Virus record (IMG/VR): IMGVR_UViG_3300028920_000026
Location: 128,001 to 190,723 of that record
Strand: one strand, 5' to 3'
Source of the DNA: a virus
DNA: 62,723 nucleotides
A model generated the notes under the pieces. That model was not told the DNA's origin. It did no database searches and saw nothing but the letters and a program-made list of their open reading frames with translations. The translations under genes and the position numbers were made by a program. Positions 7,160-60,797 of the stretch are shown one piece after another; the first letter of the stretch is position 1, and each line of letters begins with the position of its first letter.

Positions 7160-7243
7160 ACTATCTGCGTTCTCCTGGGCTCTCAGGACAGATAGTAACC
7201 ACTCAGCGTGAATGTTTTTATCTTGAGGAAGGAATTCTGCCGT

Positions 7244-25178: not shown

Positions 25179-25953
25179 GCTTCTCGAGCTTCGCTGGATC
25201 AAGTCCTGCATCGATGAGGTGCTGAGCAAAGCTCAATTCGTCGCCTTCAGCCTTCCAGAGGAGTGCGACCTTCCTTGCAACACCCTTTAGCGCTTCTTCG
25301 CTCGCTTTACCCTTCTGGGTCTCCGCGCTGCTGTCCTCGGGAGGTTGCTCTTGCTCAAGGCTTTTTGCCACGTTCTCAAAATCAACGCGATCAAGCTCGT
25401 CTGTAATCTCGACGATCCTGTCGAATGATAGTAGTGGAACGTCAAGGACATCTTCAGGAGCGATGTCAATAACGTTTGAAAAACCTTTCATCGCTCCGGC
25501 AATAGCGGAGTAGATGCCTTGGGCGACCTTCATCGCTGCGTCTGTGATCGCCTTGCGTTCGTCGCTCCCCAGTTCTTCTTCGTCACTGCGTCTTGCGTCT
25601 GTGATTGCCGTATAGGCATCGATCAATGTACCGCCAGTGTCCATTGCTGATTTGAATGCCTCTTGGTTTTTTTCTGCGGCGGCTGAAACAGCACCGGCAA
25701 TAGCGTCCATCGCTCCGACGAGGCCACGAGCTGCGTTTAGCGCAGCGGCTACGTTTGTTCCACGTTGGATGTTGCCGACGATCTGTGCTGTGATGTTCGA
25801 TAGCTCCTCGCTGAGCGGGTCCTGAAGTTTGTCGAGTTCCTTGGAGACGGCGCTTAGGGCGGCGTTTACCTGGTTCACGTCTGCCTTCGCTTCGTTGAGC
25901 GTCCGAAGCGCTCGACGTTCAATACGACGGAATTTTAGAGTATGACGTGTCAT
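25165..25953 (-). CDS. Hypothetical coiled-coil protein (262 aa)
   Basis: Ala/Glu-rich predicted coiled coil. It is an opposite-strand gene embedded in the plus-strand block, convergent with the chaperonin gene. Confidence 0.35.
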   Translation of the reverse strand: MTRHTLKFRRIERRALRTLNEAKADVNQVNAALSAVSKELDKLQDPLSEELSNITAQIVGNIQRGTNVAAALNAARGLVGAMDAIAGAVSAAAEKNQEAFKSAMDTGGTLIDAYTAITDARRSDEEELGSDERKAITDAAMKVAQGIYSAIAGAMKGFSNVIDIAPEDVLDVPLLSFDRIVEITDELDRVDFENVAKSLEQEQPPEDSSAETQKGKASEEALKGVARKVALLWKAEGDELSFAQHLIDAGLDPAKLEKLTIS

Positions 25954-26002
25954 GACGTTTACTTACAATATCTAGGAAGTTAAGATTGCTTTCGGAGTTT
26001 CT

Positions 26003-30733: not shown

Positions 30734-30810
30734 GAGGTTTATGCCTTTCGTGTGATATAGAATCTACTTTGCGTCTACGTTTATGTACAAGGACGAAGAC
30801 AGGAAGACAA

Positions 30811-38800: not shown

Positions 38801-39978
38801 TGAACGTCTATAAAGTTGATATGCGACATCCAGAGGTGATATTCAAACCGCAGACGTTCTTGTTTGAGATGTCAAGGTTTCCAGTCCGTGTCGGCGAGGC
38901 ACACCTGAAGGTGAAACCAACAGCAACATTCGATGATGTTGTCAATGCAATTGCGACTCGAGACTTGCTGCAGGATCCACACCAGAACGGTGACACAATC
39001 TACTATGGCAATACGTCAGATGCTGACATCATTTCTGATGGACATCAACCATCGTCAGCTCAGGTCAAACAGGCGTTGGCAGACGAGACGTATGACTTTC
39101 TTGATGATGAAGAAAAGCATGAGATCCTGACAAACACAGCGCTCAGCTACATGCTTGAGATCTACATCAAAGCCTTGACAAATCTGAATGTGGGTGAGTA
39201 TGCATTTTTCATGCGTCCCGAGGACGCGGTGAGGAAGGTCAACGCTGAAGTTGTTGATGACATGGTTAGATACGTGTTGGATGACATCATTGAGGACAAG
39301 AGCAAGCGTAGTCCCAAGAGACCAACCAGCATCACTCGTCCGAAGAGGCCAAGAAAATCTAGCCATGGGAAGCGTAATGCTCGCCTGTTTACGTCTGGCA
39401 ACTGGAGTTCGACAAAATCACGAAGCGGTGTTGCTGGAACTGCAAAACGCGACATTTCACCACGTACAGAACAGATTATTGCCTCGAAGGCTGGAGACGC
39501 TCGTGACCTTGCACCTGCGTCAATCAATGAGCTTGTTGGGAAGGCAACGGTCAAAGACATCCCTAAACTCTTGACGGAACTTCGAGCAATGAATGCGATT
39601 GCGAATACGTACAGCCCAATGTCCGATCCAGAGGCTGCTGCTAGGTCATACTTCTCACCGAGGATGTATGACAGGGTGTTCAATATCGTCGTAGATCCAG
39701 ATGATTTTGAGATCGATATTGACAAGACCATGGCGACTCCATACGGCAAGGCCGTCATGGAAGAACTCATCAGGGACGGTGAGGTTGAAGACATCAGGTT
39801 GAAGCTTTATAGGCGCTCACGGTATAGAAGGATGATCAACAGGTACAGGCGCTACTACCTCGCCCGAGGAAGCTGGAAGCCGATCTATAGGCAGCGATCA
39901 CGTGACAAGGGTGAAGGTGATATCATCTTTGAAAAGTATTTTATCACCGTTGAGACGTATGGAGAGGACGTCATATGA
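35824..39978 (+). CDS. Giant hypothetical protein 2 of 3 (1384 aa)
   Basis: Uninterrupted 4.15-kb ORF. It lacks polymerase, ATPase or protease motifs. The C-terminus is basic (KRPRKSSHGKRNARLF) and carries RYRR repeats. It is coupled by ATGA overlaps on both sides. Confidence 0.4.
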   Translation: MSKKNTKGFRRSLSSYTPTTKIKLDSSYTTGYNLANIQPHGLDQVTLQNLATGLRDYKPPAKGIMSTGRRKNPIAYWRYGRKNTVTLSQKRLMPNAAQRAAARKFDAIEDISGITRQRPEIVMVTEFHPVFEKDRTIEENKFASQWNVRSYAKSQLTEHGRLIDARFNLDSLNVQGMRRTFRRLWKRAKRNKALMQRLKRQRRTFGNKIKRLRTTANFMIQMLRVMENTKELFDLRDLRHTAEYSQNLHSDYKEGQVIVPDDQSQYTRNELLDFTEKNLPANTSIARTMEQYGFTRTAVDSKFTSTKIWCQSVLEYRHMLEYHSAQLLDRESWANKRDQHPTALAAPTYFRLDIANRTSGLTLPTMRAIANTEPSLADINAVTNNITQAYLKMNWGIANNTTRIAAWLWLFSKEFRFSNGLAKQEVRDALKNGFRYNVSNGQNADVFESVFGLRTYAIDQVPATIGRDLFSLAYERPDTSTAVMNFESKYLEGTSGILSPGSEYYVDDVLDNFGQTVRPSKSIDTADKTNYEFDTTRLKAFVKRLDETRTAFEAVSNGMNFMAHWRGDDRKSVSSERAIAHPPTFYSWMTNKFVNMSKHELDKKYAEDNMTGVLSLAAKDVRLKSSLFMLLMLRMFREKPQTSRAPEASRGLQIGRGNFTTIRQAANVVVSKVKANVKKVRVIRTSNIKAYTSKTYTMSSAQLATMLANGSSPTWEKIEEIFRSIYNAMVDRGEVIIGDRTRYAGVLDTMMMMIAFEVLISIFEKYSKLRVNTTTRYALFPGYRTDRTSYTTSSDVIFFDSVKIDASATRHEFTKVISRLFVERRRMIMGYVALYASMNTIRGNLQAFINYLESRKTKEHVQRLIGFTPGFEDPRFMRLIFNEQQMMLFASSIYDTTTMLKKFYRSPDIDADGDRDVDDAFDVLDESIVSPHVRRLFMATFGDTQFAQREGNNKQIITIGFPLGFVEAFNQSVNTDKATATSFDKKQNDIIKLNVYKVDMRHPEVIFKPQTFLFEMSRFPVRVGEAHLKVKPTATFDDVVNAIATRDLLQDPHQNGDTIYYGNTSDADIISDGHQPSSAQVKQALADETYDFLDDEEKHEILTNTALSYMLEIYIKALTNLNVGEYAFFMRPEDAVRKVNAEVVDDMVRYVLDDIIEDKSKRSPKRPTSITRPKRPRKSSHGKRNARLFTSGNWSSTKSRSGVAGTAKRDISPRTEQIIASKAGDARDLAPASINELVGKATVKDIPKLLTELRAMNAIANTYSPMSDPEAAARSYFSPRMYDRVFNIVVDPDDFEIDIDKTMATPYGKAVMEELIRDGEVEDIRLKLYRRSRYRRMINRYRRYYLARGSWKPIYRQRSRDKGEGDIIFEKYFITVETYGEDVI

Positions 39979-41924
39979 GCATCTCGCAACCATCGAAGGA
40001 AGTTTACGTTGTAGAGGTACCTGACTGCAAGGACTTTGAAGCATCGTTTACGTACAACTACTTTGAGCCTTCAGAAAGTGTCAGTGAATTTGCAGGTATT
40101 CCGTTGAAATACAGACAGAGGCCGACAGAGCAACGCGATGCGAGCTTTCAGAACTTTGCAGACACACGTGTTCCTCGTTGGGTTGCGCTGCGATGGTCGC
40201 TACCACGTTTACGCGTAAGAGGACTGTTTAGGATTGAGGAAGAACAGAGGGGCGATCAGTTTGACGTGGCGCCGTACAAGGACCTGATCAGAGGGAACCT
40301 TGACAAGATTCTATCAGAAGAGGCGTTTGCGTCTGAGAACTTTGTGTCGCTCGTGTTTCAGGACGGGCAAATGGACGAAACTATGTTCTTTGCTGCATCG
40401 GGTTCGTACGTCCAGCACACGATCGATGAGCCAGATGACAGGACAGACAGCACTCGTCGCGCGGCACTTCGGGCTTCGATGATAGCCCCAGCCGATGTGA
40501 ATCCAACGTTCATCAACGAGGCACTGGCACAACCTACCCTCGGTGAGGGCATCAAGTACCACAAGAACGTAAGCGACCTTAGACAAAACAGACGTACAGG
40601 TATCATTACCAGGCTTCTAAGGAAGGTCACAGCAGGTGCTCAGATCAATACACGCCTACTGTCTACGATGCTAAAGCAGGCGAACATAAGCCCATCGACT
40701 GATGCTGGTGATTTTGACGTCCTTCGTGATCTTGCTGATTCGTATGAGTCTACAGCAAATGCCCATGCAACAGATGATGTAGACGATACTAATTTTAAGC
40801 TGTACCTTCCTTACGTAGACGGCCGCGTCGACGAGTCGGGTTCTGGCAGGACACCACAAAGGTTTGCAAAGCTTGTTGGATACATCGTTGACAAGAACGA
40901 GGTGTTGAGTGATGGTACGTTCGTTGAAAAGGATCCGATCATCATTGAGAACCCTCGTGTCAAGGAGACGATTGACTTTGGTATCAGGTACAACGCAATG
41001 TACACGTACCAGGTCAGGGTAATCTACATGTTGACGGTTCCATCAATTGATGAAGAGACTGGTGACGTTGCAATATTGAAGATTCTTGTGAGCTCGCGTC
41101 CTACACACCTTGAGTACGTCCCAACGACAGAGGAGATCACACCGCCCCCGCCGACAGACATCAACTTTACGTGGGACTATAGACGACTCAATAGAGAAGG
41201 CAAACCTGGGAGCCTAATGATACACTGGACGTTTCCGCCAAACCCCCAGCGCGACATCAAGAGGTTCCAGGTATATAGGAGGAAGTCGGTCGAACACGCA
41301 TTCGAACTTGTCAAGATGTACGACTTTGACGATTCTCTGCAGCAGATTCCGTACAAAGAAGAGTATGATGAGCAGCAGATCGAGTACATTGACTCTCCGG
41401 CGACGTGGTGGTACGATGATGATTTTGTGAAGACATCACGTTTCATCTATACCGTCTGTTCGATGGACGCTCATGGGTACGTATCGGACTACGGTGCGCA
41501 GTTTGAGATTTGGTTTGATCTGTTTGAAAACAGCATCAAGAAGAGACTCATCAGTCACATGGGTGCTCCGGCAGCGTATCCAAACCTGTACATTGAGCAG
41601 GACCTTTTCGTTGATACGATCAGGGTGTCAGGTGAAAAGTCAAAGACGATGGCAGTGTACTTCAATCCAGAATACTACAGGCTGTACGACGACCACGACA
41701 AGAACATTCCTGTGTTTACTACGACGCAGGACGGTGGAAGTTATAGGTTGCAGTTCATCAACATGGACAACCAGAAGGATCAGGTTTTGACGATTTCAGT
41801 GGACGACATCGTCAAGAGGACGAAGGCCGAATACGTTGATGAAACCATCGATTCAAAGGCACTAGATGCTGCCGCCGCCACCCGTGCGGCGAGAGCCTGT
41901 AACCTACGTAAGACATACAGCTGA
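39975..41924 (+). CDS. Giant hypothetical protein 3 of 3 (649 aa)
   Basis: Uninterrupted ORF. ITPPPPTDINFTWDYRRLNREGKPGSLMIHWTFPPNPQRDIKRFQVYRRKS resembles an FN3-like module. Confidence 0.4.
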   Translation: MSISQPSKEVYVVEVPDCKDFEASFTYNYFEPSESVSEFAGIPLKYRQRPTEQRDASFQNFADTRVPRWVALRWSLPRLRVRGLFRIEEEQRGDQFDVAPYKDLIRGNLDKILSEEAFASENFVSLVFQDGQMDETMFFAASGSYVQHTIDEPDDRTDSTRRAALRASMIAPADVNPTFINEALAQPTLGEGIKYHKNVSDLRQNRRTGIITRLLRKVTAGAQINTRLLSTMLKQANISPSTDAGDFDVLRDLADSYESTANAHATDDVDDTNFKLYLPYVDGRVDESGSGRTPQRFAKLVGYIVDKNEVLSDGTFVEKDPIIIENPRVKETIDFGIRYNAMYTYQVRVIYMLTVPSIDEETGDVAILKILVSSRPTHLEYVPTTEEITPPPPTDINFTWDYRRLNREGKPGSLMIHWTFPPNPQRDIKRFQVYRRKSVEHAFELVKMYDFDDSLQQIPYKEEYDEQQIEYIDSPATWWYDDDFVKTSRFIYTVCSMDAHGYVSDYGAQFEIWFDLFENSIKKRLISHMGAPAAYPNLYIEQDLFVDTIRVSGEKSKTMAVYFNPEYYRLYDDHDKNIPVFTTTQDGGSYRLQFINMDNQKDQVLTISVDDIVKRTKAEYVDETIDSKALDAAAATRAARACNLRKTYS

Positions 41925-45506: not shown

Positions 45507-46478
45507 ATGCCGATGTACGGTTACGTATGCAAGAAGTGTGGTACAGAATTTCAATCGCCTAAGAAAGGTAAGAAGTACTGTTCACATGAGTGTTTCGCTC
45601 ACCGCTTTGATCCTGTGACGAAGACGTGCGAGACCTGTGGATGTGAATTCACGGTCGCGTATAGGTTTAGAGGTCAGAAGACGTGTGGTAAGGAGTGTGC
45701 AAAGTCGGTGATCTCAAAGACGTTGAACGCGCGTGAGGTGAAACAGTGCCTTGCGTGTGGGAAGGACTTTGAGGTTGTGCAATCGTACAAGGACGATGCA
45801 AAGTACTGTTCGTACGAGTGTTTTCTCTCGACTCGAGCAACTCGTCAGCCAAATGTAACAAAGGTCTGTGAGTATTGTGATCAGGAATTTGTTGTTCCGT
45901 TTGTGAAGAATAACAGGCGATTCTGTAACAAGAGCTGTGCAAACAGCGGTGAAAATAATGGGTCTTTTGGACTAACTGGATCTTTACATCCAACATCAAA
46001 TGTTTCAAGTTGGAATAAAGGTAAGACAAAGTACGATGATTCTCGGTTACGAATGCTAGGCGAAAAGATATCAACGATCATAGCTGATAAGATCGTTAGT
46101 GGAACATGGTCACCGCCTTCTACGGGATTCAAAGGCGAACACTACACCGGCATAAAGAACGGTGGTGAAGAGGTTTACCTACGTTCATCGTTTGAAAGTG
46201 CTGTTGCTCGAAGTCTAGACGAGGACGATGATGTTGTATCGTGGGTTCACGAACCGTTCAGGCTTCCGTACATGTTCGATGGTAGCATTCACAATTACGT
46301 ACCTGATTTTCTTGTTTTCTTTAGAGATTGTACCGAACTGTGGGAAGTCAAACCAAAGATGTTGACTGAAACTGTGCAGAATATCGCTAAACGTGAGGTT
46401 GCTACTGCATGGTGTACTTCAAACAAGACAACATATAGAGATGTTACAGAAGATGACATTGGCTTGCTGTCATGTTAG
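45507..46478 (+). CDS. Homing-endonuclease-like protein: five tandem zinc-ribbon repeats + C-terminal PD-(D/E)xK nuclease domain
   Basis: The repeats have the form C..CG..F.......YCS.EC (CKKCGTEF...YCSHECF; CETCGCEF...CGKECA; CLACGKDF...YCSYECF; CEYCDQEF...FCNKSCA). The C-terminal VVSWVHEPFRLPY...YVPDFLVFF...ELWEVKP is paralogous to the 13223, 49048 and 52421 ORFs. Confidence 0.5.
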   Translation: MPMYGYVCKKCGTEFQSPKKGKKYCSHECFAHRFDPVTKTCETCGCEFTVAYRFRGQKTCGKECAKSVISKTLNAREVKQCLACGKDFEVVQSYKDDAKYCSYECFLSTRATRQPNVTKVCEYCDQEFVVPFVKNNRRFCNKSCANSGENNGSFGLTGSLHPTSNVSSWNKGKTKYDDSRLRMLGEKISTIIADKIVSGTWSPPSTGFKGEHYTGIKNGGEEVYLRSSFESAVARSLDEDDDVVSWVHEPFRLPYMFDGSIHNYVPDFLVFFRDCTELWEVKPKMLTETVQNIAKREVATAWCTSNKTTYRDVTEDDIGLLSC

Positions 46479-46496: not shown

Positions 46497-49034
46497 ATGG
46501 CAATCGTCACGCTGACAAAGGATGACTTCGACTCATATTCGGTGCTGACGACTCCGACGCGCTACTTTAGGTCGAGTTCGCTTGGCGGTGTGACAGGGTC
46601 AGTCTACGTCTATGCGAGGCACTCTGACGTTGAGAAGGAACTTGCACCGCTCGATGCGTTTAGGGACGCGACACACGATGACTCTGACATAGCGGCGTTG
46701 GTGAAGCAGATCCAAACGTTCGGTCGCTTTATCATGAAGAACCCAACGTATCCTGAGCAGTGGAGACCTGCGTTCAACGCGGCGCTCGAAACGTACCTTA
46801 CAAAGGTGAACGAGCTGGGTACGTCAGCGCGCAAGTTCAAGGCAATGGAGGTAAACAGGTTCGTGCCTGGGACAAGGTGGTCTCAGAACATGAGCAGGAA
46901 GCTAACTGTCAAGAACACGCTTAACAAGTACTACAGGGTTCTCTATCCGAGCGCGCAGTGGGCGTTTACGAACTATAACAGCCTGAACTTCTTTTCATCA
47001 TCCCAAGTTCCGAATTCGTCGGCGCTCATCTACCCGATGAGGTCAGCTCCTGCTGAACATACCGGATACGCGACAGGATCGTACATTCCGAGTGGCGCAT
47101 TTTCGCTTGATTTCTACATTAATCCGAGGTACAAGTCGTTCGAGGGAGACGCCGGTCCTGTCATCGTCCCTGGGACGATCATGCATGTTCCTGATGTGTT
47201 TGCGGTCTCGATGATTACGGGTTCGCTCCGTGATGAGCGTAGCCGTGTCGATTCCTGGCGCCTTATGCTACAGGTAAAACACTCGACAAATATCAATCCG
47301 TCGATGGCGCAGACGAACGTCGGTGGAAATTATCCGTATGACATGATCTTCATGTCTGATAACAACGTGTTTCGTCACAATAGGTGGTACCATGTCGTCG
47401 TCAGGTGGGGGACTGATGCTGTGAACAATGGTACTGGTTCGTTTAATATTGACGGTGTCGATAGGGGTAAGTTTGTCATTCCGTCGGGAACGATCGCACT
47501 CGAACTTCCGGCGTCTGGTTGGCAGGAACCGGCAGCACTGTTTATCGGCAACTACTTTGAACCTTTTGATGGCGCGATCGACAATCAGGCATTGACGTTC
47601 TTTGGTACCGACACCGCGCTTCGAGAGGGGTTGGACGAGCTCGATGATGTCCTGAATCAGAACGAACCGAATGACTATCAGATGAGGTTTCCGCTCGTTG
47701 CTGAGATGCATGATGTTGCGATCAAGCGTCACTATATGGACGATGTTGATATTGCGGCGTCCGCGTCTGTTGGTCCGATGGCGATCGATTCGGGAAGCAA
47801 GGGAATCGCGTTCTATCTTCCACCGTTCTTCGTTCAGGAATCTTCATTTAGACAGTACGTTACTGACCGTGGAGGGATTCTACAGACACCGTTCTTTGAG
47901 ATCGACGGTACGACAGACGATCCGTTCAACGTGGCGATGGCATTTGGTGTCAACGGCCATTACATGAACCTTGAGAACTATGTTCGAGACTTTGCATCAG
48001 ACAACAACCCAAGGCTTCATCAGTTGTCGGGAACGGCGATCTCGTACACGACTCAGGCACGTGAGGCCAACGAGTTTCTATACGATGATCCGTATGTTCG
48101 AAAGCGAAATTTGACAATCCTGCCGTGCGACGATGGAAACTTCAGGCCGAGCTACGAGCTTCTCATGTCAGAGAGCCTGAATACGAAGTTTGTAAATGAC
48201 CTTGGATACGAGGATCACAGCCTTGTAAGCCTAGACAACCTGCTGCTTGATCAGTCGCTTATATTCGGTACAGATTTTGATTCGATCAATGGAGATGATT
48301 CAAAGTCGGATGATAAGGTTGAGGCGTTCGTAAACGAGCAGATCGGTTTTACGCCTGAACAACCTGGTATCTCTCCGGGAGCTGCGTTTAACACATACAT
48401 CAGGGCGATCAACGATTCGATCGCGTCTGGCAACTATGGAGCAGGCGTCCAGGCAGGTGCTCCGCTGACGATCTTCAACAGGACACGTGATTCCAGCAGC
48501 AATCAGGTCACGTTCTTCGACTTCAGCAACCTGTTCTACGGCGATCGCATCGTGCCAGGGACGTTTACGATCAAGGATCCGTCTATCACGGGTTCTGGCG
48601 GACACGTTTCGCTGACGTTGAAGGATGATGGTTTCGGAAACCTCTACAGGGCAGACTGCCAGACGAGCGCATCAACGTGGTGCAACGTCGGTAACATCTA
48701 CTACAACGAGGGCATTGTCGTCGTCAAGAATCCGAGTGCGTACTTCTTTGGCAAAGAAGAGTACGAGATGTCGTTCAAGGGTGAACGTCGAGTCCACGTT
48801 TTGAACGTGAACGTTGTAGTTGGAAAGAACGAATTCAACTCATCATCCAATCCAAACTGGATGCCTGTCTCTGCGTCAGCATCAACAACAGACCCAGACC
48901 AGGACTTTGTCTATATCACAGGTATCAACTTCCATGATGACAACATGAACGTTGTTATGAAGGCACAGCTAGCACAACCGATCACGAAGAGGTTTAGGGA
49001 TAAGCTTGCGTTCAAGGTGAAAATCGATTTTTAG
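46497..49034 (+). CDS. Large hypothetical structural protein (845 aa)
   Basis: Long ORF. Its C-terminal about 40 aa are homologous to the C-terminus of the 44215-45456 ORF. Confidence 0.4.
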   Translation: MAIVTLTKDDFDSYSVLTTPTRYFRSSSLGGVTGSVYVYARHSDVEKELAPLDAFRDATHDDSDIAALVKQIQTFGRFIMKNPTYPEQWRPAFNAALETYLTKVNELGTSARKFKAMEVNRFVPGTRWSQNMSRKLTVKNTLNKYYRVLYPSAQWAFTNYNSLNFFSSSQVPNSSALIYPMRSAPAEHTGYATGSYIPSGAFSLDFYINPRYKSFEGDAGPVIVPGTIMHVPDVFAVSMITGSLRDERSRVDSWRLMLQVKHSTNINPSMAQTNVGGNYPYDMIFMSDNNVFRHNRWYHVVVRWGTDAVNNGTGSFNIDGVDRGKFVIPSGTIALELPASGWQEPAALFIGNYFEPFDGAIDNQALTFFGTDTALREGLDELDDVLNQNEPNDYQMRFPLVAEMHDVAIKRHYMDDVDIAASASVGPMAIDSGSKGIAFYLPPFFVQESSFRQYVTDRGGILQTPFFEIDGTTDDPFNVAMAFGVNGHYMNLENYVRDFASDNNPRLHQLSGTAISYTTQAREANEFLYDDPYVRKRNLTILPCDDGNFRPSYELLMSESLNTKFVNDLGYEDHSLVSLDNLLLDQSLIFGTDFDSINGDDSKSDDKVEAFVNEQIGFTPEQPGISPGAAFNTYIRAINDSIASGNYGAGVQAGAPLTIFNRTRDSSSNQVTFFDFSNLFYGDRIVPGTFTIKDPSITGSGGHVSLTLKDDGFGNLYRADCQTSASTWCNVGNIYYNEGIVVVKNPSAYFFGKEEYEMSFKGERRVHVLNVNVVVGKNEFNSSSNPNWMPVSASASTTDPDQDFVYITGINFHDDNMNVVMKAQLAQPITKRFRDKLAFKVKIDF

Positions 49035-49047: not shown

Positions 49048-50055
49048 ATGAGGGTGATGTATAATTCCCTCATGCTCATCGAGATCAAGGAACTTCCTCG
49101 TTCCAAACCTGGAGCTCGTGGTCTTCCACCTCGAATCTGCATCCTTAAATGTGATATCTGTGGAAAGACGTACGAAAAGAAGTATGCTAAATCTCAGGTC
49201 AAAGCCAAGATTCATCGTTGTTCATTGAAGTGTGCATATGCTGCTCGCGGTCCCGGATCTCGCGGCGGTGAAGTTGTAGTCAGAAACTGTGCTCACTGTG
49301 GTAAAGAACTTCCACTGATGACAAAGGGAAGCATCTCTAGCGAGCATAGCTTCTGTGGTAAATCATGCTACGCAAAGTGGCGGTCAGAACATCCAGAAGT
49401 CTATGCTGCAAATACCGCCGCGATGCATACGCCTGAAGTAGCTACAAAGATATCGCAGAGGGTTCAAGAACGTATGCAGCAACCTGGTTATGTTCATCCT
49501 ATGCAGGGTAAACATCATACTCAAGAGACGAAGGATGCGATCTCGCGGCATCATAGAGATACAGGTTGTCTCAATGGCGAGAAGAACGGGATGTTTGGAC
49601 GTAGGCATACGAAGCAAGCGCGTGAGAAAATGTCAAACGCCGTATCACGCCGCATTATTGAAGGACGAATGATTGCGTATGGTTCTAAATGGAATGTGCA
49701 TGGACATTTTTATGCAAAGAAATGTTCAAATTACGATGAATGTTTCTATCGATCTAGCTGGGAACTTAAGTTCATGCAGTGGCTCGATGCGAATGATGCA
49801 GTTGAATCGTGGGAATATGAATCGGTTCGTATTCCGTACTGCTACAACGAACACAAACGTTGGTACGTTCCTGACTTTCTCGTGACGTATATCGATGGGA
49901 CACGTAGGATGTACGAGATCAAACCTGCTGAGTTTGTTTCTACGGAACGTGCCGTGTTGAAGGAAGCCGCTGGTAGGAAGTTTTGTGTTGAGAATAACAT
50001 ATATGAATATGTTGTGTTGACAGGAGATTCATTGTGCCAGATGGAAGTTACTTAG
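49048..50055 (+). CDS. Homing-endonuclease-like protein: zinc ribbons + NUMOD3-like repeats + PD-(D/E)xK nuclease domain
   Basis: Zinc-ribbon segments are CDICGK...CSLKCA and CAHCGK...CGKSC. The repeats are HTPEVATKISQR, HHTQETKDAISRHH and RHTKQAREKMSNAVS. The C-terminal RSSWELKFMQWLD...ESWEYE...YVPDFLVTY...YEIKP is paralogous. Confidence 0.5.
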   Translation: MRVMYNSLMLIEIKELPRSKPGARGLPPRICILKCDICGKTYEKKYAKSQVKAKIHRCSLKCAYAARGPGSRGGEVVVRNCAHCGKELPLMTKGSISSEHSFCGKSCYAKWRSEHPEVYAANTAAMHTPEVATKISQRVQERMQQPGYVHPMQGKHHTQETKDAISRHHRDTGCLNGEKNGMFGRRHTKQAREKMSNAVSRRIIEGRMIAYGSKWNVHGHFYAKKCSNYDECFYRSSWELKFMQWLDANDAVESWEYESVRIPYCYNEHKRWYVPDFLVTYIDGTRRMYEIKPAEFVSTERAVLKEAAGRKFCVENNIYEYVVLTGDSLCQMEVT

Positions 50056-52420: not shown

Positions 52421-52828
52421 ATGCCCGTGGCCGTGAAGCGACGTCGACGTAGGAAAAGAAAGTACCATCGAGGCATTCATACCTCGACGAAGCTTCTGAA
52501 CGCTCCAGTAAAGTATAGGTCCGGGTGGGAGCTAAAGTACATGCAGTGGCTAGACGAGAATGATGATGTTGAATCGTATGAGTACGAAGCGATGTACATC
52601 GAATACGTCAGCAACAAGAGGACAGGACGTGTGCGGAGATATCTACCTGACGTTTATGTGCACATGGTAGACGGGTCGCACAGGCTCGTAGAGATCAAAC
52701 CCTCGTCCAAGGTCAACAAATCCACCAACAAGAAGAAGTTGGACGCGGCACGAGGATGGTGTCAGGCACACGGTGTAATGCTGGAAATTGTTACTGAGGT
52801 CACACTAAAAGGTCTAAACATCCTATAA
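52421..52828 (+). CDS. Stand-alone PD-(D/E)xK nuclease-domain protein (homing-endonuclease-like paralog)
   Basis: YRSGWELKYMQWLDENDDVESYEYE...YLPDVYVHM...VEIKP has the same domain as the C-termini of the 13223, 45507 and 49048 ORFs. The N-terminus is basic (VKRRRRRKRKYHRG). Confidence 0.45.
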   Translation: MPVAVKRRRRRKRKYHRGIHTSTKLLNAPVKYRSGWELKYMQWLDENDDVESYEYEAMYIEYVSNKRTGRVRRYLPDVYVHMVDGSHRLVEIKPSSKVNKSTNKKKLDAARGWCQAHGVMLEIVTEVTLKGLNIL

Positions 52829-53615: not shown

Positions 53616-53729
53616 ACTTGTTGTTCGTTGGACAATATTGCGTGCATACGCTGGATATCGATGTCATTTATCATATAAATGTAGGTAGACTTGCCAGATC
53701 TAGGCGTATGTTGTACCTTTGATTTCACT

Positions 53730-54299
53730 ATGATACCTGAACTCGTGCTTGGGCTCGACGTATCGACGAGCGTGACAGGAATTGTTGTCCTTGAGAATGT
53801 TGGCGACTTTGAACCGAAGAAACACGTCGTTCACTGGACGCCGTGCGAGCTTGCAAAGCACAAGTCATTCTGGGACAAGACAAGAGTCCTATACGATGCG
53901 TTGGACGATGTTCGTAGGATGTATGCGTTGGACGTCGGTGCAATCTACGTTGAGGAACCCATGAAGCGCTTTGCGCAGGGGTTCTCGTCAGCTCAAACTG
54001 TGAGCATTCTCCAACGCATGAACGGTATCGCCTGTTACATTGCGTATACGATGTGGAACGTTGAACCAACGTATGTCAACGTTTCGTCGGCTCGAAAGGC
54101 GGCGGGTGTCAAAGTCGTTCAGACAAAGAAGGATCCACAGAATAGGAACGCCAAACAACAGACGTTTGATCACATGTTGGCGAACGATCTGAATCACGTG
54201 CAGTGGCCACAGAAGAAGTCCGGTGTTCCCAAGGACTTTGCATACGACGTCGTCGATGCATATGTTATTGCCCGTGGAGGCATGTTGCTGAACAAGTAA
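53730..54299 (+). CDS. RuvC/YqgF-fold Holliday-junction resolvase-like nuclease
   Basis: The N-terminal LVLGLDVSTSVTGIVVLE has the RuvC-like first catalytic-Asp context. YVEEP supplies an acidic Glu. The C-terminal YDVVDAYVIARGG supplies the terminal Asp. The start was set to the ATG at 53730. Confidence 0.4.
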   Translation: MIPELVLGLDVSTSVTGIVVLENVGDFEPKKHVVHWTPCELAKHKSFWDKTRVLYDALDDVRRMYALDVGAIYVEEPMKRFAQGFSSAQTVSILQRMNGIACYIAYTMWNVEPTYVNVSSARKAAGVKVVQTKKDPQNRNAKQQTFDHMLANDLNHVQWPQKKSGVPKDFAYDVVDAYVIARGGMLLNK

Positions 54300-54323: not shown

Positions 54324-55271
54324 GTGCTCTCTTTGACGGAGAAGATCGATTTTATAAGAAGGGTGTTTGGATCGTATCAGCTTCAACGCAACGAGAAGAA
54401 CATTGCCGTCAAGTGCCCGCTGTGTGGAAACACGTCATCAGACAAGAAGAAGCTCGTCATCAGATTAGAGGATGATCTTTGCCATTGTTGGGTCTGTGGC
54501 TATAAGGCAAGGTCGCTTGTTCACCTTCTCAAAAAGTTTTCAAGGGACGATCTTAGAGAGTACGTTGACAAGTTCTACGACGGCAAGAAGAACGTAGACA
54601 TCGATGATGTTGAAAAGAGGATTATCAGGCTTCCTGACGACTTCAGGCTTCTTGTTCTATCGAAGGACGATAATGATCCAGATACAAAAGCGGCGATCAA
54701 GTACTGTCAACGACGTGGATTATCAGACAGAGATCTTTGGTTTTACAAGCTTGGGATCTCCAACGATCGTCGTTGGTATAGGAGGGTGATCGTTCCGAGT
54801 TTTGACCGCGAGGGAAAGTTGAATGATTTTGTGGGTCGAACGATCGGGAAGAACGTTCTTCCAAAGTACGATTCGCCTGGACATGACAAACTAGGAAACA
54901 TCTTTAACGAGCTGTACGTTGATTGGTCAAAGCAGCTTGTTCTATGTGAAGGTCCGTTCGATGCGATGAAGTGTGGTGACAATGTTGTTCCGCTTCTTGG
55001 AGCAGAATTGAACGAAGAATCCTTGTTGTTCGAACGCATTGTTGTAAACAATACACCTGTAGCGCTCGCCTTGGACGCCGACATGGAAGAGAAGATACCG
55101 CTGATCGTTAAGAAACTAGAAGAGTACGACGTATCAGTTGTTGTCGTACGTGTCGATGATGATCCAGGGGCACTTACTCGTGAACAGTTTGCCGTTGCTC
55201 TTCGAGATGCACGTCCGCTGACGTGGTTCAACAGCATACAAGAGAAGCTACAACGTGCTGTGTTAGCATAA
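54324..55271 (+). CDS. DNA primase (zinc-binding domain + Toprim), T4 gp61/DnaG-like
   Basis: Zinc ribbon: CPLCGN...CHCWVCG. Toprim: LVLCEGPFDAMKCGDNVVPLLG (E...D.D). It lies in the replication-gene cluster. Confidence 0.55.
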   Translation: MLSLTEKIDFIRRVFGSYQLQRNEKNIAVKCPLCGNTSSDKKKLVIRLEDDLCHCWVCGYKARSLVHLLKKFSRDDLREYVDKFYDGKKNVDIDDVEKRIIRLPDDFRLLVLSKDDNDPDTKAAIKYCQRRGLSDRDLWFYKLGISNDRRWYRRVIVPSFDREGKLNDFVGRTIGKNVLPKYDSPGHDKLGNIFNELYVDWSKQLVLCEGPFDAMKCGDNVVPLLGAELNEESLLFERIVVNNTPVALALDADMEEKIPLIVKKLEEYDVSVVVVRVDDDPGALTREQFAVALRDARPLTWFNSIQEKLQRAVLA

Positions 55272-55284
55272 TTTAGGAGAACAT

Positions 55285-58200
55285 ATGATCAGGATTGCTC
55301 ACCTCGCTGACGTTCACTATAGAGGGCTTGCACGTCACGATGAGTACAGACAGGTTTTTGATGCGTTTGCCGAGGACGCATTGGCTGCGTCTGTTGATAG
55401 GGTCTACGTTGCAGGCGACATCTTCCACACAAAGACGACGGGCATAAGTCCAGAATACATCCAGGAGATCTCTCGTTGGATGACACAGCTCTCGTCAGTC
55501 GCAGAGACACATCTGATTCTTGGCAACCATGATGGGAACCTGATCAACCTCTCGCGTCAGGATGCCGTTACGCCAATCTTTGACCTCGTTAAGCAACACG
55601 GTACGAAGAATCCCATTCGCCTCTGGAAATGGAGCGGCGTTTACGATTTCGCGCCGGGGATGAAGCTGTGCCTGTTTAGTATCTTTGACAAGGAGACCTG
55701 GGACAAGGTCAAGCCCGTCCCTGGCTACGTCAACATTGCAACTTATCATGGACCAGTAAGCGGTGCACGAACGGAATCTGACTGGGTCGTTGAGGGTGAT
55801 GTCTCGCTTGAGATGTTTAAAGAGTATGATTTTGTTTTTCTCGGAGACATTCACAGGCTTCAGTATCTCTGCTACAGGATGATCAAAGGAGAAGAACGAC
55901 CTTGGATTGCATATCCTGGTTCGGTATTACAGCAGAACTATGCGGAGGCAATCGATCATGGGTACCTGCTTTGGGAGATTGAGGATGCAAGAGACTTTGA
56001 CGTTTCGTTTAGAAAGCTTCCTAATCCACGTCCGTTCATCACTGTCAACTGGAGGGGGAATGTTGAATCTACTGTTGAGCAGGCTCGTGGTTTTGGTGAT
56101 GGCGTTCGTGTCCGCGTCAGAAGCGATAGACACATAGCGCAAGGTGATTCTGACGCATTATCGACGGCCTTGAGGAGCGAAGCCGGTGCATCAGAGATCA
56201 CGTTCAAGTCAGACGTTGTTGTCGGCAATCCTGTTTTCAAAGGAGAAGACAACCAAACACTCGTCAGAGATGACTTCAGGAATGCAGATGTTGTTCTGGG
56301 CCTTGTGCGGTCGTTCCATTCGAGCACGTCTTTCAATGATGATGACATCGACCGCATGCGCAGCCTCATCAACGGGTACATCCATACGATTACCAATGGT
56401 GATGATGTCACGCGTCATACAACGTGGTCGTTGCGTGAGTTCAGGTTCGACAACCTATATGGGTACGGAGAAGGAAATGTCATCAACTTCGACAAGCTAA
56501 ACGGAATCACAGGTATTTTCGGTCCAAATAGGACAGGAAAGTCGTCGATCCCAGGCGGCATCATGTATACCTTGTTCAATACGTCTGATAGAGGAATGAT
56601 CAAGAACATCGACATTTGCAACGTCAGGAAGCCTTACTGCTACGGCAAGGTGAGGTTCTCTGTAGATGGTGTCGATTACATTGTTGAACGTCAGACGTCG
56701 AAGCACGAGACGAAGAAAAAGGGCGTGTTCAATTCAATCACGGCATTGAACATCTGGAAGGTCGAGCAGGACGGATCGCTGAACGATCAAGTCTGTGACA
56801 GCAGGAACAATACAGAGAAGGCGCTGCGTAAGATACTTGGAACAGCCGAGGACTACCTCCTTACAGGATTGTCATCGCAGGGTGAGACCGATTCGTTCGT
56901 CAAGTATAGGTCGACTGCACGCTGGCGTGTGTTGGCGAGGTTCCTCGATATTGACATCTTTGCAAGGATGGAACACTTGGTAAAGGAGGACATCAAGGGA
57001 TTCAAGGCACAGCTTCGCAACTTTCCAGAAAGGAACTGGGGAGAGCTCGCGAGGGATGCCCGTCGTCGTCTAGAGGAATGTACTGAATCGATCGAAGGAA
57101 AGGTTGATGAGCTTCAAAAGGTAAACGCTCGTCTTGCTGATGTGAACGCGCTTCTTACGGCGCACGGATCAAAAGTTGTTGTTACGCCTGTTCAGGTTGA
57201 ACAGTTGAGAATGAAGCTCGAGTCCGATGAAGCGCAGCTGCTTGATAATAAGGAGGAGCTAAAAACGCTTCGTTCAGAAAACAAAGCGAATGAGAAGAAA
57301 CTTTCAAAGATCGATGATCTTCTAGCTCAGCATGATATCACAGCGCTTCGTGCGAAGGTCGATGAAATTGGAACAGCACGAACTCGTGTAAGTGACCTCA
57401 AACATGCATTAGAACGTCACGATTCGACGCTTGCATCAAAGAAGCGTTCCGCAAAGTTGCTTGAGACAGTGCCCTGCGATGACAAGTTTCCTACATGTAG
57501 GTTCATTAAAGATGCTCATGAGGATAAGGCAAAGATAGCAGAGCAGGAGAGGGTCGTGCAGGAGGCGCACCAGCTTCTTGTAGAGGCACAGGAAATGTTT
57601 AAGTCGATGTTGGAGGACGACATCGAAGGACGTCTGAAGAAGCTTGAGGCACTTCGTGATCGTCGGTCGAAGCTCGAACTCGCGATCTTGCGCAAGAAGA
57701 ACGAGATTGACAGGCTCGAACACGCATTACGGGCAACGGAAGAAAAGGTCGAGCAGGACATGTCGACGTTGCAGGAGCTCGAGTCGGCGCTGAACGACGA
57801 AGAGAATTCTGAGATTGTTCAGCTTCGAACTGAGTCTGACAACATCAGAGAGCGCATCGATGAGATCGATAACGAGAGGTTTGCCCTTGCGACAAGAAAA
57901 GGCAGGATTGAGTCAGAGATCACGAATATGCTGACAGAGAAGCGCACTCGCGATGAGATCCTCGGAAACATGAGGATTCACGAGCTGCTGGCGATAGCAT
58001 TTTCGAAGAAGGGTATTCCACGCACAATCATCACGAGCCAGCTTCCTGTCATCAATATTGAGATTGCAAAGCTTCTCAGCGGTGTTACGAACTACAAGAT
58101 CGAGTTTGAGGTCGAAGACGGTACAGATCGCCTAGAGATGTACATTGACTACGGAGACTCACGTAGGATCATCGAGCTCGGTAGTGGTATGGAGAAGCTC

Positions 58201-58455
58201 GTTGCGTCGATTGCAATTAGGGTCGCGTTGATCAACGTATCGAGCCTCCCACGCCCAGACGTCTTCTTCATAGACGAGGGCTTCGGTGCCCTTGATTCTC
58301 TGCAGATCGAGACAGGCACACGTCTCGTTCGTGTGCTAAAAGATTACTTCAAGAATGTGCTGATCATCAGCCACGTCGATGCGGTCAAAGAGATCGTTGA
58401 CGGGTTGATTGAGATCACGAAGGACGAGCAAGATTCACGCGTTGTGTATGATTGA
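55285..58455 (+). CDS. Fused Mre11/SbcD-like phosphoesterase + Rad50/SbcC-like ABC ATPase (single 1056-aa polypeptide)
   Basis: The N-terminus has calcineurin-like motifs I-V (IAHLADVHYRG; VYVAGDIFH; ILGNHDG; ATYHGPVSG; VFLGDIHRL). The C-terminal part has Walker A, GIFGPNRTGKSS, a long coiled coil (about 56900-57900), a signature-like SGMEKLVASIAIRVAL, Walker B/D-loop VFFIDEGFGALD, and the H-loop ISHVD. Confidence 0.65.
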   Translation: MIRIAHLADVHYRGLARHDEYRQVFDAFAEDALAASVDRVYVAGDIFHTKTTGISPEYIQEISRWMTQLSSVAETHLILGNHDGNLINLSRQDAVTPIFDLVKQHGTKNPIRLWKWSGVYDFAPGMKLCLFSIFDKETWDKVKPVPGYVNIATYHGPVSGARTESDWVVEGDVSLEMFKEYDFVFLGDIHRLQYLCYRMIKGEERPWIAYPGSVLQQNYAEAIDHGYLLWEIEDARDFDVSFRKLPNPRPFITVNWRGNVESTVEQARGFGDGVRVRVRSDRHIAQGDSDALSTALRSEAGASEITFKSDVVVGNPVFKGEDNQTLVRDDFRNADVVLGLVRSFHSSTSFNDDDIDRMRSLINGYIHTITNGDDVTRHTTWSLREFRFDNLYGYGEGNVINFDKLNGITGIFGPNRTGKSSIPGGIMYTLFNTSDRGMIKNIDICNVRKPYCYGKVRFSVDGVDYIVERQTSKHETKKKGVFNSITALNIWKVEQDGSLNDQVCDSRNNTEKALRKILGTAEDYLLTGLSSQGETDSFVKYRSTARWRVLARFLDIDIFARMEHLVKEDIKGFKAQLRNFPERNWGELARDARRRLEECTESIEGKVDELQKVNARLADVNALLTAHGSKVVVTPVQVEQLRMKLESDEAQLLDNKEELKTLRSENKANEKKLSKIDDLLAQHDITALRAKVDEIGTARTRVSDLKHALERHDSTLASKKRSAKLLETVPCDDKFPTCRFIKDAHEDKAKIAEQERVVQEAHQLLVEAQEMFKSMLEDDIEGRLKKLEALRDRRSKLELAILRKKNEIDRLEHALRATEEKVEQDMSTLQELESALNDEENSEIVQLRTESDNIRERIDEIDNERFALATRKGRIESEITNMLTEKRTRDEILGNMRIHELLAIAFSKKGIPRTIITSQLPVINIEIAKLLSGVTNYKIEFEVEDGTDRLEMYIDYGDSRRIIELGSGMEKLVASIAIRVALINVSSLPRPDVFFIDEGFGALDSLQIETGTRLVRVLKDYFKNVLIISHVDAVKEIVDGLIEITKDEQDSRVVYD

Positions 58456-58458: not shown

Positions 58459-58749
58459 ATGCGCATCTCGCGTTGTCGTGTTCGTACCGACAAAGAAACG
58501 CACATAACGGTCACAATCGACCGTGAAATATGCACCGTTCCAGTGGTTTGCCCACTGTGCAGGTCGGTCATGCGTTCATGGGACGACGAGGTCGCATGGA
58601 ACGAGCTGAGCTGCTGTGATGCGTGCGCTCAAAAATGGGCCCGACAGGACAAGGAGCGTTGGGTTGCAGGATGGCGTCCTGATCCTCAGGAGGTTCAAGA
58701 TGCCGTTCGTGATCGTCCACGATTGTTTCTTGCTCAGCAGATATCATGA
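58459..58749 (+). CDS. Small zinc-ribbon protein (96 aa)
   Basis: CPLCRS...CCDAC. ORF between the Mre11-Rad50 gene and the terminase genes. Confidence 0.3.
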   Translation: MRISRCRVRTDKETHITVTIDREICTVPVVCPLCRSVMRSWDDEVAWNELSCCDACAQKWARQDKERWVAGWRPDPQEVQDAVRDRPRLFLAQQIS

Positions 58750-58782: not shown

Positions 58783-59166
58783 ATGCCTGCAAAGATCGAT
58801 TACAACGCCCTTGGACAGGCGCTTGATACGACTTGGGGTCGTAGCTCGACGCCGCTCACATCGTCAACATCAGTGAAGATGCAACTTGCTGGCGAAGGCA
58901 CCATCAAGGTAAACTACGCATCGATCGTTAGCTTTAGAAACCAACGAGAACTTCAACAGACTCGTGCAAGGTATGTTGATGAGGCCCGCTGCATCATCAA
59001 TGCAACGATAAACGATGTCAAGAAAACGTACAAGGAACTGACGGGTAAGAGCATCAAGACGTCTGAAGTGACGGCGGATGACTCGCTTGAGGTTATTGGT
59101 CTTGCAGTGCATAATCCCATCAAGAGAGCGTATGCACGACGTACTGCAATATTTGAGATCGCATGA
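58783..59166 (+). CDS. Possible small terminase subunit (127 aa)
   Basis: Its position is immediately upstream of, and translationally coupled (ATGA) to, the large terminase. The size is consistent. No sequence motif recognised. Confidence 0.3.
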   Translation: MPAKIDYNALGQALDTTWGRSSTPLTSSTSVKMQLAGEGTIKVNYASIVSFRNQRELQQTRARYVDEARCIINATINDVKKTYKELTGKSIKTSEVTADDSLEVIGLAVHNPIKRAYARRTAIFEIA

Positions 59167-60797
59167 CCAAGAAGCAACAGGTTGTAGAGATCCTCAAGTG
59201 TGGCAGAGATCCATCGTACTTTATCAACAATTACGTCAAGATCCAGCATCCCATTCGAGGGTTGATTCCGTTCAAGACGTACAAGTTTCAGGATCAGTGT
59301 CTTCTTGACTTTGAGAAATACCAGTTCAACATAACATTGAAGTCTCGCCAGTTGGGACTTTCGACAGTAGCGGCGGCATATGCTGTGTGGCTTGCGATAT
59401 TTCATCGTGAGAAGAACATCCTTGTCATTGCAACGAAGCTTCAGACGGCAACAAACTTCATCAAAAAGGTGAAAGTTGCACTTGCAGGTCTACCAGACTG
59501 GTTAAAGCTTCCGAAAGAGGTCGGTATTGCAAAGACTGAGGTTACGTTTGACAACGGCTCACAGATCAAGGCGATCCCAACGTCAGAGGACGCAGGTCGT
59601 TCAGAGGCGTTGTCGCTCCTCATTGTCGATGAGGCGGCGTTTATTCGTGACTTTGGAGAGATCTGGACAGGTTTGTATCCCACGTTGTCAACGGGTGGTC
59701 GAGCCATCATCATCTCTACGCCAAACGGCGTTGCGGGTGTAGGCGCTCAGTACTATAGGATGTGGACAGAGGCAGAGGCCGGTCAGAACGACTTCAATCC
59801 AATCAGGCTCGAGTGGACGATTCATCCAGAGCACGATAAAGAGTGGTTCGATAAACAAGCCCGCCAGCTTGGTGATCCCAAGAGGATCGCTCAGGAGCTT
59901 CTCTGTGACTTTCTTGCGTCTGGTGATACGTTCCTACAACCCGACGATCTAGCATGGGTACGTTCACAGATCAAAGAACCTATCTCTCGTGAAGGTTATG
60001 CACACAACGTTTGGGTCTGGTCAAAGCCACACCCTGACGCCAAGTACGTCATGTCTGGTGACGTTGCTCGTGGCGATGGAAACGACTATTCAACGTTCCA
60101 CATCATTGATGTAGCAACATGTAATATCGTTGCTGAATTCATGGGTAAGCTTCCTCCCGATAGACACGGCGAACACATGGCCGAGTGGGGGAAGAAGTAC
60201 AATGATGCTCTCCTTGCCGCAGAACTAAACACGTATGGGTATATGACGAACGTCAAGCTTCGTGACATGGGTTATCCACACCTCTTCTACAAGAAGTGTA
60301 ACATGGATCCTTGGTTATACCTTGCGAGCGATGATGAGCTGCCAGGGTTCGACAACCAAAAGAAGACGCGTACGCAAATTCTGTCAAAGCTTGAGGAGTC
60401 GATCAGGAACAGAACATTCCATTCACATTCACGTAGGTTGTACGAACAGCTCAACACGTTTGTCTGGAACAATGGCAAGGCGATGGCGTCATCTGATAGC
60501 CACGATGACCTTGTGATCAGCGCTGCTATCGGTTGTTGGATTGTTGACGGTGGTGACAAGGTAACAGAGGCAACGCTTGCAATGACAAAGGCGATGCTTG
60601 CGTGTTCTCATAGGGAACAGGGCGTACGCCACGAGAAGCTTGCACAGATCGACAACGTTAAGCCCCTGGTGAATCCAGCGTTGTTGGGCATGAATCCACA
60701 CAGTGTTTACAGACCACGCGACCCGTCACAGGTGAGTCGTAATGCACGAGTAGCACCGGGAGCGTTGAACGACTTCAACTGGCTTTTGGGTAGATAG
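59163..60797 (+). CDS. terL: Terminase large subunit (T4 gp17-like ATPase + nuclease)
   Basis: The N-terminus, YFINNYVKIQHPIRGLIPFKTYKFQ, is followed by Walker A-like LKSRQLGLST and Walker B LLIVDEAAFI. The C-terminal nuclease region contains acidic residues (HIIDVA...SDSHDDLV). Confidence 0.75.
   Translation: MTKKQQVVEILKCGRDPSYFINNYVKIQHPIRGLIPFKTYKFQDQCLLDFEKYQFNITLKSRQLGLSTVAAAYAVWLAIFHREKNILVIATKLQTATNFIKKVKVALAGLPDWLKLPKEVGIAKTEVTFDNGSQIKAIPTSEDAGRSEALSLLIVDEAAFIRDFGEIWTGLYPTLSTGGRAIIISTPNGVAGVGAQYYRMWTEAEAGQNDFNPIRLEWTIHPEHDKEWFDKQARQLGDPKRIAQELLCDFLASGDTFLQPDDLAWVRSQIKEPISREGYAHNVWVWSKPHPDAKYVMSGDVARGDGNDYSTFHIIDVATCNIVAEFMGKLPPDRHGEHMAEWGKKYNDALLAAELNTYGYMTNVKLRDMGYPHLFYKKCNMDPWLYLASDDELPGFDNQKKTRTQILSKLEESIRNRTFHSHSRRLYEQLNTFVWNNGKAMASSDSHDDLVISAAIGCWIVDGGDKVTEATLAMTKAMLACSHREQGVRHEKLAQIDNVKPLVNPALLGMNPHSVYRPRDPSQVSRNARVAPGALNDFNWLLGR

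Follow-up and report, generated by a model that had tools for sequence, protein, structure and literature searches.

A probable single-chain Mre11-Rad50 enzyme of the R555 type in a distantly T4-like jumbo phage

The window analysed here is a stretch of 62,723 nucleotides (nt) from the IMG/VR virus record IMGVR_UViG_3300028920_000026 (positions 128,001 to 190,723), and we report on one gene in it that joins an Mre11-like (SbcD-like) nuclease to a Rad50-like (SbcC-like) ATPase. The gene is a single plus-strand open reading frame (ORF) that begins with ATG, ends with TGA and codes for 1056 amino acids (aa); so many codons without a stop would be expected by chance with a probability of about 1e-22. 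Its ATG follows the stop codon of a primase gene (55269-55271) by 13 nt and has a strong ribosome-binding site before it. An earlier note, made from the DNA letters alone, had proposed that Mre11 and Rad50 lie here in one polypeptide, and sequence, profile, structure-prediction and comparative evidence uphold this. Every motif string it quoted was found at its coordinates, and the ABC ATPase of the Rad50 half is complete in the same frame, with Walker A, coiled coil, signature, Walker B and H-loop. The coiled coil, given as about 330 aa, covers aa 557-906 (about 350 aa) in an AlphaFold2 (AF2) model. All five Mre11 motifs are present as well, although they are confined to the first 190 aa and not spread over the N-terminal 350 (Table 1).

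Profile searches divide the protein into two parts. PHROG profiles place aa 1-355 in the SbcD-like phrog_100 (expect value, E, 7e-22) and find the SbcC-like phrog_77 over aa 379-1055 (E 8e-53, 181 bits), and Pfam places Metallophos over aa 2-191 (E 2.8e-10), with weaker matches to SMC_N, AAA_23 and SbcC_Walker_B. A family profile built from 54 members and searched against the PDB returned Mre11/SbcD, Rad50/SbcC and, weakly, SMC heads, the lone exception being a marginal match to Langerin (E 9.5e-4). With hhalign, the probability was 95.5% both to residues 1-293 of Escherichia coli SbcD and to the C-lobe of E. coli SbcC. The AF2 model shows the expected domain order (mean predicted local distance difference test, pLDDT, 79.2), and Foldseek matched it in the PDB to Rad50 (7zr1_C, E 1.7e-17), to the head of E. 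coli SbcC (7yzp_C) and to E. coli SbcD (4m0v_A, TM-score 0.66, target-normalised; 7yzo_A over 421 columns), the SbcD structures aligning across 351-421 columns. Between the nuclease and ATPase parts, the helix-loop-helix predicted at aa 334-370 would occupy the place of Mre11's Rad50-binding domain.

Table 1. Features of the fusion gene and of its conserved neighbours in the window; domain boundaries from AF2 are predictions.
Feature	Residues (aa)	Window coordinates	Strand	Basis or remark
RuvC-like Holliday-junction resolvase		53691..54299	+	phrog_159
DnaG-type primase, 315 aa		54324..55271	+	phrog_47, E 1e-39; directly 5' of the fusion
Shine-Dalgarno AGGAG		55275..55279	+	5 nt 5' of the fusion ATG
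Single-chain Mre11-Rad50, complete coding sequence (1056 aa + TGA)		55285..58455	+	
Mre11/SbcD phosphoesterase (nuclease) domain	1-245	55285..56019	+	Pfam, phrog_100, hhalign, Foldseek, invariance
Mre11 motif I HLADVHYR	6-13	55300-55323	+	
Mre11 motif II AGDIFHTK (GDIFH)	43-50	55411-55434	+	
Mre11 motif III LGNHD	79-83	55519-55533	+	
Mre11 motif IV YHG	154-156	55744-55752	+	
Mre11 motif V LGDIH	186-190	55840-55854	+	
Beta-hairpin (QYLCYRMIK-GE-ERPWIAY)	193-210	55861..55914	+	AF2; unbroken in the window
Small alpha/beta domain, Mre11 capping-domain position	251-309	56035..56211	+	AF2 secondary structure
Flexible linker, low confidence	311-333	56215..56283	+	AF2, pLDDT 42-48
Helix-loop-helix, then ~10-aa connector to Rad50	334-370	56284..56394	+	AF2 helices 334-344, 352-370
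Rad50/SbcC ATPase N-lobe	381-553	56425..56943	+	Profiles, invariance, gp46 alignment
Walker A GPNRTGKSS	413-421	56521-56547	+	
Q-loop SSQGE	530-534	56872-56886	+	
Ascending coiled-coil arm, 172 aa	557-728	56953..57468	+	AF2
Apex loop VPCDDKFPTC	729-738	57469..57498	+	AF2, homologue conservation
Descending coiled-coil arm, 168 aa	739-906	57499..58002	+	AF2
Rad50/SbcC ATPase C-lobe	911-1056	58015..58452	+	Profiles, hhalign, invariance
Signature LGSGMEK	965-971	58177-58197	+	
Walker B/D-loop VFFIDEGFGALD	993-1004	58261-58296	+	
H-loop ISHVD	1028-1032	58366-58380	+	
Large terminase subunit (TerL)		59163..60797	+	phrog_2; 3' end of the conserved module in the window

Because the source contig is a metagenome assembly, the fusion could in principle be an artefact in which a stop codon or frameshift between adjacent sbcD-like and sbcC-like genes was missed near 56300-56500, the event that the earlier note had named as its refutation. 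We rely on homologues, taken as clusters from a collection of 5.8 billion proteins and from 1.84 billion representatives (50% clustering) that were searched exhaustively with HMMER. At least 120 clusters match at full length, the best 120 all being 1011-1077 aa long with 97-100% query coverage and 43-59% identity, and HMMER returned 1691 representatives at E ≤ 1e-30. Among the 149 other representatives listed, 113 measure 1000-1110 aa at about 30-44% identity, and IMG/VR contigs of the fusion-bearing lineage number at least 567. Of 80 independent IMG/VR viral contigs, 65 encode both halves in one continuous ORF; the remaining 15 have their break within the nuclease domain (aa ~205-220), and in none does it fall at the junction between Mre11 and Rad50. 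That junction (aa 320-400) is essentially gap-free in the 120 close homologues and includes the invariant residues W381 and N390. The genome of an isolate, Microcystis phage Mel-JY01, has a 27.6%-identical homologue (WWT39521) as one annotated coding sequence, and automatic annotation by the Joint Genome Institute (JGI) gives many homologues both the SbcC and the SbcD name. A hidden stop or frameshift is thus excluded by comparison, and we dismiss an artefactual origin on these grounds, its probability being close to nil.

The earlier note called such a fusion unusual, which holds only against T4 and cellular systems: the architecture was already published in 2011, the present family exceeds 1600 clusters at 50% identity, and environmental phages carry such fusions very commonly. 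R555 of Mimivirus was described as an Mre11/Rad50 fusion together with twelve further ones, Bacillus phage 0305phi8-36 among them (Yoshida, Claverie & Ogata, Virol J 2011, PMC3175470), and R555 homologues were found to be abundant in aquatic viral metagenomes, on scaffolds with phage primases and endonucleases (PMC3175470). Our literature search found no later paper on phage R555-like fusions. We compared the window protein with R555 through the published description and through structure matches in BFVD, not by direct sequence alignment. Both proteins have an N-terminal Mre11-like and a C-terminal Rad50-like half in one ORF. In R555, the third Asp of GDxxD is replaced by His and the equivalent of Pyrococcus furiosus H206 by Asp (PMC3175470), and both substitutions recur in the window protein as GDxxH and GDIH. 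R555 also has a region of capping and helix-loop-helix length and a short connector, compatible with the geometry of the Thermotoga maritima complex (PMC3175470); in the AF2 model of the window protein, the corresponding stretches between the halves would be aa 251-309, aa 334-370 and about 10 aa. R555 is longer (1351 against 1056 aa), and the window protein, unlike that of Mimivirus, comes from a jumbo phage that is tailed and has a T4-like head module.

The best Foldseek match in BFVD was a full-length fused Tupanvirus protein of 1379 aa (A0A6N1NVE8; E 2.7e-52, 1326 columns); next came full-length fused Mimiviridae-type proteins of Harvfovirus, Yasminevirus, Catovirus, Klosneuvirus and Bodo saltans virus, and the matches also included fused proteins of about 1300 aa from the Tenacibaculum phages pT24 and PTm1. 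As in the window, pT24, PTm1 and 0305phi8-36 encode Mre11-Rad50 in a single ORF, although the fusion of 0305phi8-36 was reported to be without one P-loop segment and the capping/helix-loop-helix region (PMC3175470). Mel-JY01 likewise has a single-ORF fusion with an orthologous primase directly 5' of it and with GDxxH, GDIH and SGME; it differs from the window protein in its low identity and in a CxxC hook, and is annotated only as "AAA domain containing protein". The primase and endonuclease neighbour types of the Global Ocean Sampling (GOS) scaffolds also occur near the window fusion, where a TnsA-like ORF 2.4 kb upstream (52421-52828, plus strand) weakly matches T7-type endonuclease I. By its shared substitutions, structural matches and neighbour types, the window protein belongs to the R555-type class of fusions.

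Compared with the systems of E. coli and T4, the fusion departs in gene organization and in several motifs. E. coli SbcCD (6S6V, 6S85, 7YZO, 7YZP, 4M0V) has the same two folds in the same order, sbcD then sbcC, but as separate genes overlapping by 4 nt. In the hhalign alignments, GDIFH and GDIH of the window protein stand opposite GDVFD and GHIH of E. coli SbcD, and H48 and D188 are invariant in the window family. The coiled coil of E. coli SbcC is much longer (1048 aa in total for SbcC alone), and E. coli SbcC carries a CxxC hook. In T4, the genes for gp47 and gp46 are separate, as the earlier note had stated, but they are not adjacent: two small ORFs lie between them in the order 47, 46.2, 46.1, 46, which is collinear with the halves of the fusion. 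The loss of a stop codon would be enough to create the fusion, because its order is that of the genes in E. coli and T4. The alignment to both T4 proteins that had been suggested as a check gave a strong result for one half: gp46 (560 aa, with a shorter coiled coil) aligned at 95.7% over aa 376-1027, across the whole Rad50 half and including the ...PTC of the hook, whereas the match to gp47 was weak (30%, E 5.6e-4) but collinear through the motifs. T4 has a canonical CPTC hook and the motifs GDIFD and GHFH. The window phage shares with T4 the context of a T4-like TerL and prohead protease. The further suggestion that a covalent fusion fixes a 1:1 stoichiometry adds little, as the canonical Mre11-Rad50 complex is already an M2R2 heterotetramer (PMC7752040). 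What the fusion does guarantee is the co-expression, co-assembly and co-transfer of both halves.

The substitutions in nuclease motifs II (D to H) and V (H to D), together with a non-canonical hook, depart from the characterised enzymes and would fit a protein that is mainly a structural, SMC-like tether or condenser of DNA ends in a large genome, with a vestigial nuclease half. The conservation of the active site speaks against this. Across the 120 homologues, the catalytic and ATP-binding motifs are invariant or nearly so, and each metal-ligand position (D9, H11, D45, H48, N81, H82, H155, D188 and H190) is invariant and filled by a metal-capable residue, as expected of an active site under selection. 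R555-type proteins carry the same two changes, and one family member has an intein beside the GNHD nuclease motif. We therefore regard a purely structural protein as highly improbable, and an end-processing Mre11-Rad50 enzyme as the better account of the nuclease half.

At the tip of the coiled coil, the family has the motif VPC-x6-C, which reads VPCDDKFPTC in the window and VPCGDxYPTCKFIKDAH in the family consensus. The two cysteines (C731 and C738) do not vary across all 120 close homologues, and their spacing is kept in 106 of 114 representatives at about 30-44% identity. When T4 gp46 is aligned, its GGLCPTCL falls on the family's GD.[YF]PTCK: the second cysteine is common to both, an aromatic residue (Tyr or Phe) takes the place of the first, and a new cysteine stands four residues upstream. 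More distant fused relatives retain CxxC (CKHC in Mel-JY01, CEYC in LR756508). In the AF2 model, both cysteines lie exactly at the turn between the 172- and 168-residue arms and are therefore predicted to be well placed to act as a hook. CXXC is given as the hook motif of Rad50 (PMC7752040); the hook was not discussed in the 2011 fusion paper (PMC3175470), and the PC-x6-C variant is undescribed in that paper and in a 2020 review. In the signature motif, M969 is invariant among close homologues, while some of the more distant representatives read SGAEK.

A protein identical to that of the window is encoded on a 331,213-bp metagenomic contig (ENA ERZ27252253, k141_1101516), and the contigs of relatives span 200-324 kb. 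A nucleotide search of 50,697 phage records gave no match for the 12 kb around the gene; there is hence no close sequenced relative, and the genomic context was drawn from metagenomic contigs. The local order is resolvase, primase, fusion, a 96-aa Cys-rich ORF, a 127-aa ORF and TerL, followed beyond the window by the portal region and then a T4-type prohead protease. This arrangement is conserved: in 51 of 55 loci, TerL follows the fusion downstream within 2.5 kb; 51 of 53 loci have the resolvase upstream, and in 45 of 64 the primase directly precedes the fusion. An orthologous primase (31-33% identity) also directly precedes the fusion in Mel-JY01 and LR756508, where the fusion itself is 24-28% identical. 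The nearest TerL proteins are those of Flavobacterium phage immuto, Mel-JY01 and LR756508 (38-41% identity), followed by those of T4-like cyanophages (~32%), which makes the phage with the fusion a remote offshoot of the T4-like assemblage. Around the terminase of Flavobacterium phage immuto, the closest cultured phage by TerL, no Mre11/Rad50 gene is present. In a genome collection of 185,579 species the family is rare, occurring on only a few small contigs of metagenome-assembled genomes (MAGs) from unrelated taxa, and these occurrences look like mis-binned phage DNA.

The 96-aa Cys-rich ORF (CPLC...CCDAC; 58459-58749, plus strand) starts 4 nt past the stop codon of the fusion and is its immediate downstream neighbour in 48 of 55 related loci. 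No family matches it significantly, and it could encode an accessory factor of the nuclease or be unrelated to it.

A Rad50-like ATPase with a nuclease partner is also reminiscent of Lamassu, in which LmuB, a Rad50-like split ABC ATPase with a coiled coil as in the window protein, works with a separate LmuA effector and usually LmuC (bioRxiv 10.1101/2022.05.11.491447). The fusion could accordingly be a phage-borne, Lamassu-like or SMC-type conflict system, an LmuB-type sensor of DNA ends with a fused phosphoesterase effector that excludes competing phages or plasmids rather than serving the phage's own replication. With 100 bits over aa 393-1039, the PADLOC model of LmuB (PDLC03859) ranks above the cellular SbcC models, LmuACB chains occur among the Foldseek matches (9hqx_B, E 1.2e-11), and Lamassu has itself been proposed to work in an SbcCD-like manner (bioRxiv 10.1101/2022.05.11.491447). 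The phage SbcC profile nevertheless outscores LmuB with its 181 bits, and the N-terminal half, a full Mre11/SbcD that includes capping-like and helix-loop-helix regions, is no listed type of LmuA effector. None of the 8 neighbouring ORFs matches a PADLOC model, hence neither LmuA nor LmuC is among them, and the gene sits in a conserved core module of resolvase, primase and TerL rather than in a variable island. The genome records of Mel-JY01 and LR756508 each show one place of Mre11/Rad50 match, so that the fusion is the sole homologue detected in them, and SbcC and SbcD are practically universal in jumbo phages as components of the core machinery for recombination (Iyer et al., PMC7824862). 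Given its location in the core module and the absence of LmuA and LmuC from its neighbours, we reject a Lamassu identity, to which we assign a very low probability.

We consider it very likely that the gene encodes a genuine single-chain Mre11-Rad50 (SbcD-SbcC) end-processing enzyme of the R555 type, carried by a jumbo phage of about 330 kb that is distantly T4-like. Several points weigh against this assignment. The NCBIfam scores for SbcC (59.6 bits against a cut-off of 478.5) and SbcD (25.6 against 77.65) and likewise those for the Rad50 and Mre11 equivalogs are far under the cut-offs, and because of this the window protein is a divergent lineage and no equivalog of cellular SbcC, SbcD, Rad50 or Mre11. 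The apex has C-x6-C in place of the canonical CxxC zinc hook of Rad50/SbcC, so that hook function is not assured, and the signature reads SGMEK instead of SGGE. No second Mre11/Rad50-like ORF was found in the window, which is 62.7 kb of a 331-kb genome. Finally, the activity, oligomeric state and metal content that we ascribe to the fusion family are all inferred. The departures in apex motif and signature from characterised Mre11-Rad50 proteins are, in our view, minor.

As an Mre11-Rad50 enzyme, the protein would pair into a dimer that corresponds to the M2R2 tetramer, with the helix-loop-helix of aa 334-370 docking on the base of the coiled coil as a Rad50-binding domain. On DNA ends, the two Rad50 heads would be engaged by ATP, whose hydrolysis would give the Mre11 dimer access to the DNA for cutting or resection. 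Each coiled-coil arm, with about 170 residues, would reach some 25 nm (estimated at 0.15 nm per residue), and the apex cysteines would join two arms, probably via a metal ion. The role would be that of T4 gp46/47, the processing of double-strand ends for recombination-dependent replication and repair, because resolvase-primase and terminase genes are its neighbours, SbcCD is nearly universal in jumbo phages, and the protein is the sole such homologue detected in the window and in the related genomes of Mel-JY01 and LR756508; degradation of host DNA is a possible further role. The fusion would thereby alter the delivery of the enzyme, through co-expression, co-assembly and co-transfer, and not its chemistry.

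About one-fifth of the family members consist of two ORFs (~220 aa and ~865 aa) that are split inside the nuclease domain (loci L028, L029, L053, L059, L072, L074-L076, L078, L079, L082, L083, L090, L091 and L094), and about 22 of the 149 other representatives listed are split as well (e.g. P0138, P0154 and P0181). The split falls at the tip of the beta-hairpin that matches aa 193-210 of the window protein. The first ORF ends in a conserved acidic strand (...RE.EIEIDEDEL.KYPG[CA]..[IV]E, then stop), the second begins with a conserved basic one (M(G)KKIKIKVKKPW...), and the two ORFs overlap by up to 55 nt or lie up to 134 nt apart. Given their complementary charges, the two strands may form a beta-zipper that puts the split nuclease back together non-covalently.

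In a 484-kb huge phage (LR756508.1, 5944-10169; locus L005), the fused gene is interrupted at this same hairpin by a Cys-rich ORF of 305 aa (6665-7582), which carries a TnsA-like endonuclease domain (PF08722, E 5.8e-6). Because an Rfam scan found no group I intron in the insert of about 900 nt, it looks like a free-standing homing-endonuclease gene that splits its host gene. The TnsA-like N-terminal endonuclease domain is also present in three ORFs of the window (45507-46478, 49048-50055 and 52421-52828, all plus strand; E 1e-10 to 1e-14). NUMOD3 is present in one of them, and two have a weak match to T7 endonuclease I. Probably these ORFs encode free-standing homing endonucleases that are spread across the replication module and belong to the same family as the ORF that splits the gene in LR756508. 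Insertions of another kind are found in four long representatives (P0197, 1400 aa; P0209, 1416 aa; P0231, 1779 aa; P0247, 1429 aa), where inserts of about 330-720 aa stand beside GNHD and/or Walker A. The inserts match Intein_splicing, LAGLIDADG_3 and Hom_end and are inteins in catalytic motifs of the fused protein; inteins at such sites are, as we read them, a pattern typical of indispensable enzymes.

Taking the PC-x6-C apex, the GDxxH and GDIH substitutions and the SGMEK signature together, one may speculate from sequence that the single-chain enzyme joins its arms and binds its metals in a way unlike every characterised Mre11-Rad50 protein, and that the split relatives are perhaps a natural split enzyme, its strands zipped together again, left behind by the invasion of a homing endonuclease. 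We put this forward as a tentative idea that is rather doubtful as a whole.

Other features of the window bear less directly on the fusion. Gene orientation switches near window positions 24000-26000, with minus-strand genes to the left and plus-strand genes to the right; the GC skew changes sign there, and the cumulative skew has its minimum near 24 kb. The switch could be a point of divergent transcription or be related to replication. Upstream of the fusion, the same plus-strand block encodes a helicase with ResIII and Helicase_C_2 domains (27957-29657), which we take to be XPD/Rad3-like, and a PIN-PhoH fusion protein (30769-32217; PIN_4 E 4e-29, PhoH E 3e-46). Four large plus-strand ORFs of 838, 1384, 649 and 845 aa lie within 33311-41924 and 46497-49034. 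They have no significant Pfam match, with Laminin_G_3 below threshold in the 845-aa ORF only, and the three that were scanned against PHROG (838, 1384 and 845 aa) have no match there; possibly they are structural or tail-fibre proteins. On two jumbo-phage contigs, in the region past the right end of the window, a peptide deformylase gene lies just 3' of the prohead protease in the head-morphogenesis block (L002, 19832-20335; L003, 20943-21428).

In conclusion, the window protein is real, conserved and ordinary in function, and the claim that it is a rarity is wrong. In a very large and mostly uncultured aquatic lineage of jumbo and other large phages, the enzyme's standard form is the Mre11/Rad50 fusion that was first seen in Mimivirus, and this supports the suggestion made in 2011 that the abundant R555-like environmental sequences stem from phages. 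The understanding of the pathway is unchanged and the importance of the finding is modest, with the hook variant and the split relatives as modest leads. Structural and biochemical studies of Mre11-Rad50 could profit from a single-chain enzyme of about 1050 aa as a handy minimal system, and the variant apex motif offers a natural test of what the Rad50 hook requires.

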